Virus record (IMG/VR): IMGVR_UViG_3300023174_000052
Coordinates: 64,001-128,000 of that record
Reading direction: 5' to 3' (one strand)
Length of the DNA stretch: 64,000 bases
From: a virus
Positions within the stretch are counted from its first letter, which is position 1, and each line of letters begins with the position of its first letter. Shown in pieces: positions 1-14,410 of this stretch. Made by a program: the position numbers and the translations under genes. The notes beneath the pieces are model-generated. The model saw only the letters and a program-made list of their open reading frames with translations. It was not told where the DNA came from and did no database searches.

Positions 1-367
1 CCTTGATGTCATTGCCTTTGACCTGTAGATCGCCGCCGAGAATAGCGTCGCCAGAGCCAGTGATGTGACCACCGACCTTAAGATCAGAAGAGGCAGATAA
101 GACACCGATGAACTGCGCTGTGGCGTGTTTAAAAACGCCGGCTGCAACGCCCGTAAAATCTTTGGTATCGTCGCCTTGAATACGCTTGACAGACGCTGCA
201 AGTTGACCTAAAATTCCTTCGAGGTCTGTCGCGCCGATTGCCGCGGCGCCTGCAGGCTCGAGTCTCGATTGAGCTGACAAGGACTGATTAGCGATATCAG
301 AAATCGCCGTTAGTGAACCAGTAACTGCTGCGAGTCTAATTTGACTGCGTGGAGTTGGTGATGACAT
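1..367 (-). CDS. 5' part of a probable tail-fibre/virion structural protein (runs off left edge)
   Basis: Not in ORF track. Read by hand from ATG at 367: MSSPTPRSQIRLAAVTGSLTAISD...LSASSDLKVGGHITGSGDAILGGDLQVKGNDIK, open to base 1. G-x-L-x-V-x-G beta-repeat character; SD-like AGGGG upstream. Confidence 0.7.
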   Translation of the reverse strand, partial: MSSPTPRSQIRLAAVTGSLTAISDIANQSLSAQSRLEPAGAAAIGATDLEGILGQLAASVKRIQGDDTKDFTGVAAGVFKHATAQFIGVLSASSDLKVGGHITGSGDAILGGDLQVKGNDIK

Positions 368-8265: not shown

Positions 8266-8583
8266 CTATTCAGGGAATTCTTTCTGTATCCACTTACTTC
8301 TTACTTCAATTCTTTTAACTTTCTCTTTTCTATCGAGTTGTTTAAATGCATATTCGGCTTTCAAAGCTTCACTCTTTGTTTGATATGGCCACCAACAAAG
8401 CATTTTAACAGGAATTCTTGAGCGAGTGTATTTTGCCCCTCGCCCAGAATTATGCATCGCTAAACGTCGATCTAAATCGTTCGTGATTCCAGTGTAGAGG
8501 GTCCCGTCCCTACATTGAAGGACGTAGACCCACCAGCACTCATCACCCCAGTATATTTCCTTACTCGAGTCCGTACTTGACAT
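8266..8583 (-). CDS. GIY-YIG nuclease (UPF0213/YazA-like)
   Basis: VYVLQCRDGTLYTGITNDLDRRL..HNSG.GAKYTR...EALKAE. Confidence 0.9.
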   Translation of the reverse strand: MSSTDSSKEIYWGDECWWVYVLQCRDGTLYTGITNDLDRRLAMHNSGRGAKYTRSRIPVKMLCWWPYQTKSEALKAEYAFKQLDRKEKVKRIEVRSKWIQKEFPE

Positions 8584-9163
8584 CGACGGTCGCAGTAAGC
8601 GTAGGCAGACGAGCGTGATTTGCTAAATTGTGGCGACGCGCCTCATCAGCGTCAAGATACCAGTCGGCATGGCCCTTCGAATGAACGATATCGAGGAAAT
8701 AACCTGGTTCCTTCCCGCAGTTCTTGGCCATCATCTCGTAGACCTTCTTATTCAAACGTTCAGCCTCGCGAACGTCGGCCTTGAGTTCTTCAACCTTACC
8801 CCATGCACCTGACGATACATCGTGAATCATCAATGTAGCATCAGCGTCCATGTATCGCATACCTTCAGCACCGAAGGAAAATAGTAGCGCGCCACAACTC
8901 ATAGCCTTACCTTCGACAACAGTCGCGACTGGTACCTTCGAAGCCTTGATCGCAGCGATCATAGACATGAGAGCATAAACTTGACCACCATAAGAATCGA
9001 TAATGACTGGAATAACGGTCTGACCAGTGTTCTGCGCAAGGCTCATCGCAGAGCAGAAGTCCTTCGCCGATTCTTCATCAAACTTATTCACTCGAATAAT
9101 AACCGGTTCATACTTTAATTCGAGGTCCTTGATGAGCGGCGAAACAGTTGCTTTGAAGTTCAT
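8561..9163 (-). CDS. clpP: ClpP-like protease
   Basis: IIDSYGG, GKAMSCG (Ser nucleophile), LMIHD (His), DWYLDADEA (Asp); AGGAGG RBS. Confidence 0.88.
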   Translation of the reverse strand: MNFKATVSPLIKDLELKYEPVIIRVNKFDEESAKDFCSAMSLAQNTGQTVIPVIIDSYGGQVYALMSMIAAIKASKVPVATVVEGKAMSCGALLFSFGAEGMRYMDADATLMIHDVSSGAWGKVEELKADVREAERLNKKVYEMMAKNCGKEPGYFLDIVHSKGHADWYLDADEARRHNLANHARLPTLTATVDVKYGLE

Positions 9164-9209
9164 TCTTCCTCCTGCCCGTTGAAGCGCGGGCGATTTATTA
9201 TCTAAGTCT

Positions 9210-9238
9210 ACTATAATAAGTAACTTGAATATTTTTAA
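9210..9238 (-). promoter_or_regulatory. sigma70-like promoter of clpP
   Basis: TTAAAA-N17-TATAGT. Confidence 0.6.
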
Positions 9239-9270
9239 TTAATTTAATTGTATAATATCTAATTGCACAA

Positions 9271-11007
9271 TTAACTGCACTTTGACGAACCACAAGAAGA
9301 ACACGTCATGCATCCCTCTTGGTATACAAGACTGTCGCTACCACAATTTTGACATGTCTTACCTGCGATCGTAGTTCCATCCTTGATGTATCCCTTAAGG
9401 ACTCGCGAGATTGTCTTCGCGAACGAGAACATGTCGCTATTCTTATCTTTCTGGAGTTGTTCGACAACATATTGGATGGGTACTTCATGACGAAGGGCAA
9501 GAGAAATCGTCCTACTGAACGCACCTTGAGTTGGATTGTCAAATAAGTTAGCTACGTCCTTGAACATTAGCTCATCGTCTTCACCAAGTGGAATCGATAG
9601 ATTGTATGTTGACATTCCATCTCGTTTACCATTCTTGATAAGATTACCAATCTTGTGCTTCTTGGGCGCTTCAATATTTCCTGCTAATCCGCAGAAGACT
9701 TCGTAAGGCTTACCATCCAGAAGACCGATGAGTACCATCCAGTTTTCAGACTCGGTTCCATTACGTACAGTTACACGGTGAATGTCACATGGGATGGACT
9801 TCGGACGCTTCTTCGAATCACGGCCGGGTGGCTTCAATGGGTCCTGCTTCTTTGGAGCTTCCGTAGATACAAGCACACCATTACGACAACCATCACGATA
9901 GACAGTGAATCCCTTGCAACCAGATTCCCAAGCACGAAGATAAACGTCGGAGACTAATTCCTTCGTTGCTGAGTTCGGAAGGTTACACGTCTTCGAAATC
10001 GAGTGGTCAATCCAACGTTGCGCCGCAGCCTGTAATTCTACTGAAGATACCCAATCTACGTCGTTAGCAGTCGCACCCCAATAAGGAGATTCCTCAGGTG
10101 CCTCGAGTCCAGTTACATCCATCCACTTCTTAAACCAGTGATGATAAACGGTGTATTCTGTCCACTTATCTCCCAACTCATCTACGAAATCCACCTTCGA
10201 AGTGAAATCGCCAGGTGTAACCTTACGACGGCGCTTATAAGAAAGGAGGAACGCGGGTTCGATGCCTGAGGTGGTTCGGGTAAGACAAGAGACGGAACCG
10301 ACGGGTGCAGTGGTCGTCAATGCAATATTACGACGGCCAGTCTTACGCCACATCTCTTTTACGCTTTCACCGCATGCGTCCATGATCTTCGAGAGGTATT
10401 CATGATCCTTCTCTTTCTTATATTCGAACATTGGAAAAGGACCACGCTCATGAGCGAGGATACAAGAAGACGTATGCGCAGCAATCGCAAGAGAACGATA
10501 GATCTTTTCAGTCCACGTAATGGACTCTTCGCTACCATACTTTACACCGAGCGCAGCGAGACAATCTCCGAGACCCGTAATCCCCAACCCCGTACGGCGA
10601 CCGTTCAATCCCGCAGCGCGAATCTTCTGCCATAAGTCTCGTTCGATTTGTTTAACCTGGTTGGGTTCGGTGTCTCGTTCAAGCTTCTTAATAATCTTGT
10701 CAACGCACTCGACCTCGAGGTCAACGAGATCGTCCATTAGTCGCTGCGCTCGCATAGCGACCTTATGGAACCTATCGAAATCAAAGCGTGGCGAAGACGA
10801 GAACGGTTCGTTAACGAACGACGTAAGGTTAAGAACCATGAGACGACAAGAGTCATATGGAGACAGTGGAATCTCTCCACAATTATGAACGAGTAATCCA
10901 TTAGCGAAAAAATTGTGTGTATCGTCCACTGTTAAATCATAAACAGTTTCATTTTGTGCCTCTTCAATTGACACAATCTCATCCCAAAAAACATTACCTT
11001 CAATCAT
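9271..11007 (-). CDS. nrdJ: class II (B12) ribonucleotide reductase, C-terminal half, with N-terminal split-intein C-fragment
   Basis: 42-aa IntC ending NFFANGLLVHN, then CGEIPL...CRL, RRTGLG, TTAPVGS, SGIEP, DHSISKTCN, KGFTVYRDG, TSCPD-like region and Cys-rich tail. Confidence 0.92.
   Translation of the reverse strand: MIEGNVFWDEIVSIEEAQNETVYDLTVDDTHNFFANGLLVHNCGEIPLSPYDSCRLMVLNLTSFVNEPFSSSPRFDFDRFHKVAMRAQRLMDDLVDLEVECVDKIIKKLERDTEPNQVKQIERDLWQKIRAAGLNGRRTGLGITGLGDCLAALGVKYGSEESITWTEKIYRSLAIAAHTSSCILAHERGPFPMFEYKKEKDHEYLSKIMDACGESVKEMWRKTGRRNIALTTTAPVGSVSCLTRTTSGIEPAFLLSYKRRRKVTPGDFTSKVDFVDELGDKWTEYTVYHHWFKKWMDVTGLEAPEESPYWGATANDVDWVSSVELQAAAQRWIDHSISKTCNLPNSATKELVSDVYLRAWESGCKGFTVYRDGCRNGVLVSTEAPKKQDPLKPPGRDSKKRPKSIPCDIHRVTVRNGTESENWMVLIGLLDGKPYEVFCGLAGNIEAPKKHKIGNLIKNGKRDGMSTYNLSIPLGEDDELMFKDVANLFDNPTQGAFSRTISLALRHEVPIQYVVEQLQKDKNSDMFSFAKTISRVLKGYIKDGTTIAGKTCQNCGSDSLVYQEGCMTCSSCGSSKCS
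10882..11007 (-). mobile_element. split intein C-fragment (IntC, 42 aa)
   Basis: Block F VYDLTVDDTHNFFAN, block G VHN, followed by the +1 Cys. Confidence 0.93.
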
Positions 11008-11797
11008 TTTTTAACTCCATGAGTCTTACTTTCTTCCACTCATTAATAATATCTTTTTGTTTTCGATTTATTAATAAAAACAGTTCGTCTGAGATTAATT
11101 CGGCAGATATATCGCCGTATTCTTTTTTAAACATTTCGAATTTGTCGATTCTTTCTAAAGAACCATTTGACCACCTGGATTTAATCTCTACGATCTTGGA
11201 GAGATTATTGTTTTCGTAAATAAAAAAATCGGGTCGATAATATCTGCCATCTGACAGAAGGTACGAACGTGCTTCGACGTCCCATTCTATTCTGTTATCA
11301 TTTAAAAATTTTGCATAACCATATTCCCAAGAACTTCGCAACCAAACATATTTTGATTTAGATTCGTTAAGGTACCAACCCGCAACGTGATGTTTATTAA
11401 CGATATCTTTGTCTTTGTATTTTTCAGTCCAATTCGTCCACGGATTATTAGTCTTGGCACGCTCTGATCTTATCTTTTTTAAACCTTCTGTGACACAGTT
11501 TTGGCCCGCTCGTTTTTCTATTCCTAACGTTTCAAATACAGTTCTTAATCTTGTGTAAGAAATGTTTCCCAAGTAAGAACTAATCAACTTAAAACCCATT
11601 CCATTCTCTTCATACAAAATCGTTAGATTTCGTATTAATTTTTGACAATCTTTATGTGAGGCGTCGATTACATAACTTGCGGTTATCTTTCCACCTCTAC
11701 CTATAAATTCTCTTTTAATTTTAGAACAGGCTATTTCTTGTATTAATTCTCTGGTTTCGTTGATCAGTCCTTCTAACGCTTGAATATGTTCGTACAT
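11000..11797 (-). CDS. free-standing putative homing endonuclease, PD-(D/E)xK fold
   Basis: LRSSWE...EWDVE...YRPDFFIY...IVEIKS; AT-rich; lies between the two intein halves. Confidence 0.8.
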   Translation of the reverse strand: MYEHIQALEGLINETRELIQEIACSKIKREFIGRGGKITASYVIDASHKDCQKLIRNLTILYEENGMGFKLISSYLGNISYTRLRTVFETLGIEKRAGQNCVTEGLKKIRSERAKTNNPWTNWTEKYKDKDIVNKHHVAGWYLNESKSKYVWLRSSWEYGYAKFLNDNRIEWDVEARSYLLSDGRYYRPDFFIYENNNLSKIVEIKSRWSNGSLERIDKFEMFKKEYGDISAELISDELFLLINRKQKDIINEWKKVRLMELKND

Positions 11798-11846
11798 TTA
11801 CTAATCCCTCCATTTATAAGTATATTGCAAGGATTAGTAAATTTTC

Positions 11847-13028
11847 TCATTTAGAATCAAAGGAAAGAATTTTATCGTCTTTTGTTAAATCTGCCGCTTC
11901 GACCCAACCGCGTTGTGTGTATACGCGGTGATCTGGCGTTAATCTAATTTTCTTTCCTGACTTGGTTTTTAGTTCAAGAATCTTTGCGTCATCTTTCGTC
12001 TTAAACGCAACAGCTGACTTTTTAACGACTTCTTTCTTTTCGGTATCAAAGGACTCTACAAAGAACTGCGCATTTTGTTCTGCCAACTCTTTTACAGTCT
12101 TTTCTCCTGCATTTGTTAGGACCAGAGTATCTCCTGTCACGCATGGATTTGTCGAAATTGACTTATAGCCCATTGACTCGTAAATATCTGCCGTTCCATT
12201 CTTCGTAACATTGTCCCAGAACAAAGCGCCTGGTTCTGCCGAAGACCATGCTGCATCCACGAACTGGTCCCAGATTGCCTTAGCCGATACTGTCTTTGTG
12301 TATTCGGCGTTCTCTACGCTCTTCTCTACGGGCCACCGGAGTGTAAAATCCGTACCTGACTTCACGGCATGCATAAACTCATCCGTGAAACGAATAGAAA
12401 TATTTGCACCAGTTACCTTCTTAAGATCACGCTTGATATTAATGAAGGTCTCGATCTCTGGGTGGCGACAGTCGATTGAAAGCATCAACGCTCCTCGACG
12501 ACCGCCTTGGGCGACCTCTCGACATGAATTTGAGAATCGCTCCATGAACACGCCGATACCGTCAGTCGTACGAGCAGCGTTAGAAGTAGGAAGACCCTTG
12601 GGACGAATGTTCGATACGTCGAATCCTACGCCACCGCGACGCTTCATGATTTGAACCTGCTCTTGGTCAGAGAATAAGATGCCGCCGTAAGAATCTTTAG
12701 GGCTATCGATGACGAAACAGTTCGAAAGCGACTGAATCTGATAGGGATTTCCAATTCCTGACATCGGAGAACCTTGCGGAACAATGTCTGCGAAATTCTT
12801 GAAGTATCCGTAGATTTCTTCTTCAGACATTGGATTGGGATACTTCGATTCTACGTGGGCGAATGCCTTCGCCAAGCGACGGTGCATCTGGTCTGGATTC
12901 GTTTCCAGAAGTTCACCCGCTTCATTTCGAAGCGCGTATTTCATGAATACATCAGGAGCAAGTGGATCTCCATCAAAGTATTCAGATGTTTCACGTAGCG
13001 CGATCTCTTGTACGTTAGTTAAAGACAT
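11847..13028 (-). CDS. nrdJ: class II ribonucleotide reductase, N-terminal half, with C-terminal IntN
   Basis: PQGSPM, LSNCFV, GGVGFD.S.IRPKG, QGGRRGALM, HPEI, ANISI, AEPG, STNP|C. Likely start is ATG 13028, just after the helicase stop. Confidence 0.92.
   Translation of the reverse strand: MSLTNVQEIALRETSEYFDGDPLAPDVFMKYALRNEAGELLETNPDQMHRRLAKAFAHVESKYPNPMSEEEIYGYFKNFADIVPQGSPMSGIGNPYQIQSLSNCFVIDSPKDSYGGILFSDQEQVQIMKRRGGVGFDVSNIRPKGLPTSNAARTTDGIGVFMERFSNSCREVAQGGRRGALMLSIDCRHPEIETFINIKRDLKKVTGANISIRFTDEFMHAVKSGTDFTLRWPVEKSVENAEYTKTVSAKAIWDQFVDAAWSSAEPGALFWDNVTKNGTADIYESMGYKSISTNPCVTGDTLVLTNAGEKTVKELAEQNAQFFVESFDTEKKEVVKKSAVAFKTKDDAKILELKTKSGKKIRLTPDHRVYTQRGWVEAADLTKDDKILSFDSK
11850..12143 (-). 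mobile_element. split intein N-fragment (IntN, 98 aa)
   Basis: Block A CVTGDTLV directly after ...STNP; block B IRLTPDHRVYT; GWVEAADL; ends at a stop codon. Confidence 0.93.
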
Positions 13029-13030
13029 TT

Positions 13031-14410
13031 TTACTTGCTCCCCATTACTTCTTTCCATTTTGCTTGTAGGACTCGTTTTCTTTCGCTTTCATCTTGAGCC
13101 AAAGATTCTTGAAGACTCAAACTATTTTCATCAAGGATTCTAATTTTAGAGCGAGAAGTGTCAATGTGTACTGGAAAAATGATGCCATCTCGGCCGGCTC
13201 GATTCTTCGCAACGAACATTCTCCCCATTCCAGTCGCCTTTTCCGAAGGTTTTCGCGATAGAGAAATTACTACGTCGGCGACCATTGCCTTACCATAAGA
13301 TTCAGACATGTTCTCCAAACCTACGACGTCTGCGTTCGAACCCTCTCTATTCGACTGCGAAGCAGTCCAGATTGGGATAGCCTTTTCCATTGCAAGATTT
13401 CGTAGATCTTCATAGATTAGTTTTAGCTCCATTCGTAGAGCGTCGAATTCTCGACTCGAACGCATAATGTCGGCGTAGTCAATAATGATAACATGCGGGA
13501 CGAATCCACGAAGAGCTAACTTTTCTAAGTGATTTCGAATAGTAGCAACTGTACATGTACCGGTTGGATACTCTTTAATAATCAACCTACCGAGTTCCAT
13601 GCCCTTATACATATCGATGACATTTGTCTTCGAATCCTGAATGTCACTCGATGGGATATCCGTTAGATTTGAATCGTATCGAATTCCTACAGCAGTCTCG
13701 GTCAGTTCGAAAGTATAATGAACAACGTTCTTGCCGACCTTTAACGCGTTAGCTCCCATAGCAACAAGAAAGTGAGACTTTCCAACACCAGTTGGAGCGG
13801 CTATAACTCCAAGTTCACCCTTGCCAAGACCACCATTTAGAACAGAGCGTTCGTCAAGCTGTTCGATACCAGTTGGACAAGGCATGCGATTAATCTTAAC
13901 GAAACGCGCTTCCATATCTTCGAAGAAATCATGACCAACAGATGCTGCGATACCAACGGATACCGCCTTCTTCATGAGATCGACAACTGCGTCATACTGG
14001 TCGGTACCGATGAGCTCAACAGATTTATTAAGAGCTTCCTTCATCGCTTGCTTGCGACAAAAATCCAGAGACTTATCTTTTACATACGCGAGATCTCCCA
14101 TATCAGGAAGCGTACGCATGCGTGTTAAGTATTCTACGACCTGCTCTTTAAGAACTTCGTTATTCGTTTCTCGAAGGTCGTCTTTGACGATGGAGATTAG
14201 AAGGGGAAGGGTTGGAAAGTTCTTGTACTTCTCAAAGTACTTGAAATACTTGTCGGTCAAATAAGCGAGATAACGTAGATCGAAAAAATCCGATCGCATT
14301 ACTTCTGTCATTTGTGTAGCCCAAGTTGTATCTGTGATCAAACCAAGAAAGATTCTTTCCTGGAATGGGCGACCGTATTGTCCAAAGTAATTCTCACTAC
14401 CGTCAATCAT
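13031..14410 (-). CDS. DnaB-family replicative helicase (T4 gp41-like)
   Basis: Walker A APTGVGKS, FELTE, IIDYAD, WTASQSNR, KNRAG. Confidence 0.92.
   Translation of the reverse strand: MIDGSENYFGQYGRPFQERIFLGLITDTTWATQMTEVMRSDFFDLRYLAYLTDKYFKYFEKYKNFPTLPLLISIVKDDLRETNNEVLKEQVVEYLTRMRTLPDMGDLAYVKDKSLDFCRKQAMKEALNKSVELIGTDQYDAVVDLMKKAVSVGIAASVGHDFFEDMEARFVKINRMPCPTGIEQLDERSVLNGGLGKGELGVIAAPTGVGKSHFLVAMGANALKVGKNVVHYTFELTETAVGIRYDSNLTDIPSSDIQDSKTNVIDMYKGMELGRLIIKEYPTGTCTVATIRNHLEKLALRGFVPHVIIIDYADIMRSSREFDALRMELKLIYEDLRNLAMEKAIPIWTASQSNREGSNADVVGLENMSESYGKAMVADVVISLSRKPSEKATGMGRMFVAKNRAGRDGIIFPVHIDTSRSKIRILDENSLSLQESLAQDESERKRVLQAKWKEVMGSK

Follow-up and report, generated by a model that had tools for sequence, protein, structure and literature searches.

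A Putative Split-Intein and Endonuclease Cassette at the Radical Cysteine Codon of a Class II Ribonucleotide Reductase Gene in a Lake-Water Phage

The Interrupted nrdJ Locus

The stretch of DNA considered here (the window) comprises 64,000 nucleotides (nt), bases 64001-128000 of the 175,594-bp IMG/VR virus record IMGVR_UViG_3300023174_000052, a lake-water phage sequence obtained by metagenome assembly with a completeness of ~52% (CheckV). According to the ORF list of the window, the ribonucleotide reductase (RNR) gene nrdJ is carried by two open reading frames (ORFs) on the minus strand with a third ORF of the same strand between them, and the coordinates place each of the three in a different frame. 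The N-half ORF (13058..11847) encodes 403 aa, or 393 aa in the contig's own gene call (P0004), which starts from the ATG at 13028. It consists of an N-extein (12144..13058; 305 aa or 295 aa, depending on whether the ATG at 13058 or that at 13028 is the start) with the C-terminal end ...STNP, followed by a 98-aa N-terminal intein fragment, referred to as IntN (11847..12143 including the stop; coded by 12143..11850, then TGA at 11849..11847). A 49-nt spacer containing a predicted RNA hairpin (11796..11842) leads to the gene of a free-standing putative homing endonuclease of 265 aa (11000..11797). The C-half ORF (11007..9271, 578 aa) then opens with a 42-aa C-terminal intein fragment, IntC (10882..11007), ending in ...VHN, and continues into the C-extein (9271..10881; 536 aa plus stop), which begins with CGEIPL at the radical cysteine and has a Cys-rich tail at its end. 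All of these features lie on the minus strand.

The preliminary description of this DNA, made from its letters alone, had given nrdJ as two ORFs about 840 nt apart, and 839 nt indeed separate the stop of the N-half from the ATG of the C-half. The IntC frame opened by this ATG shares 8 nt with the end of the endonuclease gene, and a GGAG lies upstream of it. IntN, spacer, endonuclease gene and IntC make up a putative mobile cassette of 1262 nt (10882..12143, minus strand), and the exteins come in frame once it is taken out.

The host gene is assigned by profile and residue matches to the class II RNRs of the NrdJ_Z type, the class first proposed for it. On TIGR02504 (NrdJ_Z), which in NCBIfam is the equivalog of adenosylcobalamin-dependent RNR, the N-half takes up profile positions 8-282 and the C-half positions 281-604; they abut at 281/282, and the scores of 198.7 and 294.1 bits give a rough sum of 492.8 against a cut-off of 399.95. 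The RNR barrel domain extends on the N-half up to ...STNP, and the rest of the barrel follows in the C-half after CGEIPL. C-extein residues 1-14 align with residues 322-335 of T. maritima NrdJ, including Cys322 and Cys333, and the Cys within ...SNCFV... of the N-extein falls on the region around Cys134 in the same enzyme. In T. maritima NrdJ, Cys322 is taken here to be the thiyl-radical cysteine and Cys134 and Cys333 to be the redox pair. The first C-extein residue, which is also the +1 Cys of the intein, aligns with residue 322, in support of the earlier proposal that the junction would rebuild NPCGE with the thiyl-radical Cys as the +1 nucleophile. No other RNR gene, whether a class I alpha subunit, a small subunit (PF00268) or a class III enzyme, was found in the 175.6-kb record, which represents ~52% of the genome. 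Among RNA data, one metatranscriptome run contains 4% of the sampled sequence words, a match that says nothing about expression.

The Split Intein

Profile matches and catalytic motifs identify the interrupting protein element as a class 1 intein (HINT) that is naturally split and retains all of its catalytic blocks. Pfam Intein_splicing (PF14890) scores 40.0 bits on the N-half and 40.2 bits on the C-half against a cut-off of 35.8, covering profile positions 2-93 and 116-155, respectively, while the NCBIfam profiles intein_Nterm (TIGR01445) and intein_Cterm (TIGR01443) reach 60.9 bits on IntN (cut-off 24.5) and 40.3 bits on IntC (cut-off 15.6). These matches and the ORFs themselves substantiate the 98-aa IntN after STNP and the 42-aa IntC before CGEIPL that had been read from the letters. 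IntN carries Cys1 and the block B motif T69-x-x-H72, and C1, T69 and H72 are invariant in the alignment of its relatives (A2); in the corresponding alignment for IntC (A3), N42 does not vary, and conservation of H41 and D24 reaches at least 90% (30 sequences in the alignments). The residue that follows ...VHN is Cys, in keeping with the class 1 rule of His-Asn followed by Cys, Ser or Thr.

Among solved structures, the best relative of IntN is the NrdJ-1 intein (8ubs, E 3e-8), and IntC is closer to DnaB-type mini-inteins than to NrdJ-1. When the two fragments were modelled together, the interaction prediction score from aligned errors (ipSAE) was 0.80, with the three controls peaking at 0.00, at a threshold that 58/80 solved complexes and 2/110 mismatched pairs reach; this pass may express likeness to solved split inteins and is not proof of binding, because split-intein complexes have already been solved. 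The docking runs share at least 95% of contacts, with a partner predicted local distance difference test score (pLDDT) of at least 82, and the closest modelled contacts are those of IntN 57-60 and 91-94 with IntC 7-14, which form two long antiparallel strands.

The arrangement is widespread. A search of 5.8 billion clustered metagenomic proteins returned 89 clusters that match the junction together with the IntN part, mostly N-halves with a length of ~390-410 aa whose ORF terminates behind a related IntN located at NP|C, and loci L004-L018, L066 and others in IMG/VR repeat the order of N-half, endonuclease and C-half. Relative to locus L004, the ratio of nonsynonymous to synonymous substitution rates (dN/dS) is 0.045 for IntN, 0.064 for the endonuclease and 0.065 for IntC, and all three parts of the cassette are therefore under purifying selection. 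In one relative, L017 (protein P0064, L017:3484-3954), IntN is 157 aa long, with a C-terminal extension of ~60 residues before the stop.

The Intervening Endonuclease

Fractured genes with an intervening endonuclease had been named as the known precedent, and the 265-aa ORF found between the halves agrees with this, its predicted product combining a helical, helix-turn-helix (HTH)-like N-terminal domain with a PD-(D/E)XK C-terminal domain. The AlphaFold 2 (AF2) model of the protein has a pLDDT of 88. Its N-terminal helical domain resembles ParB/HTH DNA-binding domains (Z 5-6), and the best fold match of its nuclease domain is TnsA (1t0f; Z 8.9, root-mean-square deviation 4.5, 137 aligned residues by VIA-align), further matches being Bax1, Hjc, restriction enzymes, I-Bth0305I (Z 5.8) and Vsr (Z 5.7), with many restriction-fold rows at Z 5-6. 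Foldseek comparison of the model with the PDB returned nothing at E <= 0.001, the sequence matched no Pfam family at E <= 0.01 and no NCBIfam family, and tblastn gave no match among 50,697 deposited phage records. Vsr is not among the weak sequence matches of the family, which are Bax1/DUF790 and T7 endonuclease I; the DUF790 and Phage_endo_I matches of individual members are sub-threshold.

Related endonucleases form 119 clusters in metagenomes, and a scan of IMG/VR with the endonuclease profile yielded 80 loci, almost all of which are flanked by an ORF ending in IntN and one starting with IntC. E158, E175, P189-D190 and E204-x-K206 are invariant in 44 members, motifs by which the enzyme is classed as a canonical member of the PD-(D/E)XK nuclease superfamily. 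Membership in the EDxHD (Vsr-like) family, whose motif definition includes a conserved His general base (PMC3239194), was considered and ruled out, since this defining His is absent, no His being invariant or nearly invariant among the 44 family sequences, and the motif is E...PD...ExK instead.

The nuclease domain is also present in GTDB, where Bacillales genomes carry it within interrupted nrdJ-like genes, directly after the NPCG codons and without intein motifs; group I introns were found elsewhere in these genes, not around the nuclease ORF. At L095:2797-3980 (Sporosarcina sp. FA9) and ~60 other Bacillales loci (L088-L151), the nrdJ-like gene is broken after NPCG by ~1.2 kb of DNA with a 311-aa ORF, the N-terminal domain of which is homologous to the nuclease domain in the window and which is free of intein motifs, and a separate group I intron lies upstream within the same gene. 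Rfam gave no match in the endonuclease-bearing interruption of the Sporosarcina gene. From these sequence relationships, the nuclease family appears tied to RNR active-site codons in two kinds of carrier.

The spacer ahead of the endonuclease gene folds into a hairpin (11842..11796; dG -18.1 kcal/mol) with a 14-bp outer stem (z -5.2; 0/200 shuffles fold equally well). Its 3' arm masks the end of the GGAGGG ribosome-binding site together with the first two bases of the endonuclease AUG, and a TATAAAT lies within its loop. Close relatives fold equivalent hairpins in which the arms change in pairs, from ACTAATCC/GGATTAGT to ACTAACCC/GGGTTAGT, as judged from single-sequence folds and inspection of the aligned arms. 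By analogy with cases cited in Dassa et al. (2009), this hairpin may regulate translation of the endonuclease. The hairpin loops of many relatives display (A/C)TACTTAT(A/G) beside the ribosome-binding site, which may be a promoter element of this phage group.

Mobility Signatures of the Cassette and One-Piece Forms

Comparison with its closest relative, L004, separates the cassette from the gene that carries it. Protein identity amounts to 93% in each of IntN and IntC and to 85% in the endonuclease, versus 74% in both exteins, and saturation of synonymous sites is confined to the exteins. Across windows of 90 nt, nucleotide identity is 0.82-0.90 within the cassette and about 0.58-0.79 in the exteins, rising from ~0.6-0.7 exactly at the IntN border and falling back to ~0.6 just beyond the IntC border. 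Against L008 the pattern is reversed, with exteins more similar than the cassette. These opposite patterns argue that the cassette and the host gene have different histories, as homing predicts.

An apparent empty site was found in contig X5, from another freshwater study, which joins 10882 to 12145 and reads AAT-CCT-TGT-GGA-GAG (N-P-C-G-E) with a synonymous Pro codon; because this is a single contig at a depth of 3.2 with 27 nt on its shorter side, it gives a hint, not proof, of an exact empty site.

A contiguous counterpart is present in P0013, recovered from two independent assemblies, in which a mini-intein occupies the same NP|C site. This mini-intein is 97% identical to the split IntN of L008 over 88 residues and 92% identical to the L008 IntC plus flank, and a short linker takes the place of the stop, endonuclease gene and restart. 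The relative bearing P0013 is syntenic with the window (DnaB-like gene, nrdJ and ClpP-like gene), and further intein halves interrupt its nrdJ elsewhere, at two points. In all, nrdJ of this relative (L152:1174-5067; also L153) has three intein insertions: a split intein at ...LTIH|C, the halves of which enclose a true Vsr-like ORF of 320 aa (...EVHGDFWH...), a one-piece mini-intein at NP|C, and an IntN at ...SISKT|C, where the ORF stops. Both of the extra sites are uninterrupted in the window. Further breaks of 1.4-1.6 kb occur near residue 197 of the N-extein at L007:1362-3951 and near residue 240 of the C-extein at L064-L067:4669-8018, which suggests additional elements in the same gene.

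Charge Polarity of the Intein Halves

The Lys-rich end of IntN and the acidic IntC pointed out in the preliminary description are both real, and they mark a whole clade. IntC has 0 K/R and 9 D/E for a net charge of -9, while IntN has 19 K/R and 17 D/E for a net charge of +2, with +4 in its last 40 residues, and is basic at its IntC contact region. This charge pattern is common to 13 distinct related loci (L004-L009, L011-L014, L016, L018 and L066), of which L013 and L016 have an acidic IntC yet a slightly negative IntN. L017, excluded from the tree for its long IntN, has an equally acidic IntC. The remaining relatives, NrdJ-1 among them, combine a basic or neutral IntC with a strongly acidic IntN. 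The IntC strand reads W-D-E-I-x-x-I-E in the clade of the window versus K-I-K-R-I-T in the other relatives, and its partner strand on IntN has K/R in the former and E/D in the latter, so that the alignments indicate a compensatory pair swap of charges on contacting IntN and IntC strands across the family. Opposite polarities of natural split inteins are already known from gp41-1 and gp41-8 versus the rest (Dassa 2009, PMC2677866).

A tree of the concatenated halves (MAFFT and FastTree, midpoint rooted) places the charge-inverted inteins in one clade and the NPC|x register in two clades nested among NP|C inteins, placements that are provisional, since the tree was built from a short alignment and carries no printed support. 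The NrdJ-1 register, but with Cys instead of Ser at +1, recurs in a large set of split inteins in RNRs (NPC|C...HN|CEI; L021-L023, L026, L028, L035-L036, L038, L040-L044, L046-L047, L049, L051, L054-L055 and L074-L075), with a predicted spliced loop of NPCCE.

Comparison with Known Systems

The layout is that of the fractured genes described by Dassa, London, Stoddard, Schueler-Furman and Pietrokovski (Dassa 2009, PMC2677866). In that work, the split NrdA-1..7 inteins lie directly N-terminal to the thiyl-radical Cys, with NrdJ-1/-2 one residue further C-terminal. The NrdA-1..7 fractured genes and the window share the same-strand order of three ORFs and an insertion point directly before the radical Cys, and in both sets of loci the break falls at the usual endonuclease-insertion point of an intein. 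The 49-nt spacer is within the published range of 27-51 nt, and a hairpin with a TATAAAT-type element before the endonuclease gene and an overlap of the endonuclease and IntC frames were likewise reported. The likeness to NrdA-1..7 is drawn from the published description, and the host there is NrdA as opposed to a class II NrdJ_Z-type RNR. The novelty implied for this junction is accordingly only partial: it does differ from the NrdJ-1 allele, but NP|C is the most frequent, classical intein site in RNRs (Dassa 2009, PMC2677866), is used by the split NrdA inteins, and belongs here to a family that is abundant in metagenomes.

Another close system is NrdJ-1 from the Global Ocean Sampling (GOS) Lake Gatun data (PDB 8ubs), which also places a split intein beside the radical Cys of a B12-type RNR. 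Its locus was recovered as L025, the IntN and IntC of which match the solved NrdJ-1 and the junction of which reads NPC|C...HN|SEI. Both this locus and the 2009 description agree with the earlier statement that NrdJ-1 splices after the Cys: its junction is one residue downstream, with the radical Cys at -1 and, where Gly would stand, a Ser nucleophile at +1. The NrdJ-1 endonuclease is homologous to that of the window and belongs to the same family (39% identity, E 6e-35). In contrast, the two inteins share only 37% (IntN) and 41% (IntC) identity and fall in separate FastTree clades, their polarity is opposite (NrdJ-1 IntN net -7 versus +2 for IntN and -9 for IntC in the window), and the host RNR of NrdJ-1 is of a different type, with 27% identity to the N-extein over residues 146-398. 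The possibility that the window holds an NrdJ-1 allele was rejected on the NP|C junction, these identities and the separate clades.

Like the intein in the window, gp41-1 and gp41-8 have a positive IntN and a negative IntC on the docking strands (Dassa 2009, PMC2677866), and gp41-1 structures show weak similarity to IntC (E 0.004); they differ in their helicase host, in their insertion site and in a remote sequence relation. The NrdJ of Bacteroides phage DAC23 (MT074142, DAC23_177) has the same NP|C junction with Cys at +1, but its intein is in one piece, with a LAGLIDADG-type domain in frame and Gln, not Asn, as its last residue. As regards the endonuclease, I-Bth0305I (PDB 3r3p; PMC3239194) of the EDxHD or 'Vsr-like' family is similarly built from two domains, a DNA-binding N-terminus and a restriction-fold C-terminus. 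Members of that family occur in fractured genes and introns (PMC3239194), and the enzyme of the window is likewise in a fractured gene; the conserved His of the EDxHD family is lacking in the window family, which has E...PD...ExK.

Proposed Mechanism and Alternatives

Taken together, these data are very probably explained by a selfish cassette in nrdJ that unites a split intein and an endonuclease, is removed from the protein by trans-splicing, and spreads by homing. The anatomy of the element, its conservation, the purifying selection on it and its mobility signatures can be read directly from the window and its relatives; trans-splicing, the activity and target of the endonuclease and regulation by the hairpin are predicted from them.

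In this explanation, the 1262-bp cassette sits exactly before the codon of the thiyl-radical Cys. The three ORFs are probably co-transcribed, with the N-half and C-half translated separately; no terminator-like site was found between them on the minus strand, and upstream of the N-half lies a sigma-70-like promoter match (TTGACA-16-TAGAAT, 11/12; 13137..13164, minus strand), which is a consensus match only. The basic IntN strand and the very acidic IntC would then dock into one HINT fold, in which Cys1, the TxxH block, the terminal HN and the +1 Cys would carry out protein trans-splicing and release the intein. The expected product is a one-piece NrdJ of ~831-841 aa with the native NPCGE finger loop, in which the radical cysteine itself would have served as the +1 nucleophile. 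Because the intein sits in the active-site loop, the unspliced halves would be inactive, and the phage's own dNTP (deoxynucleoside triphosphate) synthesis would therefore hinge on splicing. Most likely, cleavage by the endonuclease is directed at nrdJ alleles that lack the intein in co-infecting relatives, and homing then copies in the complete cassette; translation of the enzyme is probably limited by the hairpin that masks its ribosome-binding site and start codon.

Several points weigh against this explanation. The docking score may reflect resemblance to solved complexes, and the empty site is carried by one shallow contig with a short flank. The host supplies dNTPs too, and dependence on splicing accordingly holds for the phage enzyme only, while a second RNR could still be encoded in the remaining half of the genome. 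RNAalifold recovered no consensus structure from nine spacers aligned with MAFFT, owing to misalignment of their 3' arms.

The rival account that survives best is one in which the halves never splice, the intein pieces being only docking modules or the gene a decaying pseudogene, with the phage using the host RNR. A precedent for function without ligation exists, as an intein-less split RNR, Aeh1 NrdA split by an endonuclease gene, works as a non-covalent complex (cited in Dassa 2009, PMC2677866). Against this stand the catalytic intein residues, all invariant or nearly so in the family, a dN/dS of 0.05-0.07 on both intein halves, and the full-length NrdJ profile matches that both exteins retain; moreover, a 140-residue HINT domain between the Pro and the radical Cys would, to judge from the alignment with T. 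maritima NrdJ, block the active site. Non-splicing halves are consequently regarded as improbable.

RNA-level splicing, in which the halves would be joined through a group I or II intron that holds the endonuclease ORF, draws some support from Bacillales, where homologues of the nuclease domain lie in nrdJ-like interruptions after NPCG without intein motifs and group I introns occur elsewhere in those genes. It is nevertheless very hard to sustain for the window, as a search of both strands of 9000-13300 against Rfam returned nothing at E up to 1, the complete in-frame intein halves flanking the interruption would be superfluous for an intron, and the empty-site junction falls exactly on the intein borders. 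An assembly or sequencing artefact that hides one continuous intein with an in-frame endonuclease domain, the outcome named in advance as undoing the split, is scarcely credible, for although the source is a metagenome assembly, no evidence for such an error was found, the three different frames would require two frameshifts, the identical stop, spacer, separate start and overlap recur in dozens of independent contigs, and contigs X4 (9380-12872, ~92% identical) and X2 (10679-12272) from other studies are colinear with no indel in the cassette.

Implications

The selfish-cassette layout has been known since 2009; what goes beyond it are the clade of inverted charge, the abrupt identity step as a sign of transfer, the one-piece derivative of near-identical sequence, the two registers of insertion used by related inteins and the uncharacterised ExK-type endonuclease family. 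A joint reading of these is offered tentatively, as possible rather than probable: the RNR split inteins concerned may form a single clade whose docking electrostatics have been inverted, by paired K/E swaps on the contacting strands, relative to sisters that include NrdJ-1, making it naturally orthogonal to them. This clade would change state easily, as suggested by a one-piece form 92-97% identical to the split intein of a relative and by two registers one residue apart, and its endonuclease would be the prototype of an uncharacterised ExK-type PD-(D/E)XK homing lineage that hits RNR active-site codons from both split inteins and intron-like insertions of Bacillales.

The locus and its relatives appear to display the life cycle of a split-intein and endonuclease cassette, with an occupied site, an apparent empty site, a sharp identity step marking recent transfer and a near-identical one-piece derivative. 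The most conserved RNR codons seem to be hit repeatedly, by inteins in two registers and by intron-like insertions with the same nuclease. For protein engineering, the compact pair of 98 + 42 aa with Cys at +1, a polarity opposite to that of NrdJ-1 and DnaE-type inteins, and dozens of natural variants is, from its sequence features, a reasonable candidate for an orthogonal trans-splicing pair.

A further putative nuclease lies two genes downstream of nrdJ in the window, where a 105-aa ORF (8266-8583, minus strand) with a GIY-YIG catalytic domain (PF01541, E 8e-19) adjoins the gene of a ClpP-like protease (8561-9163).

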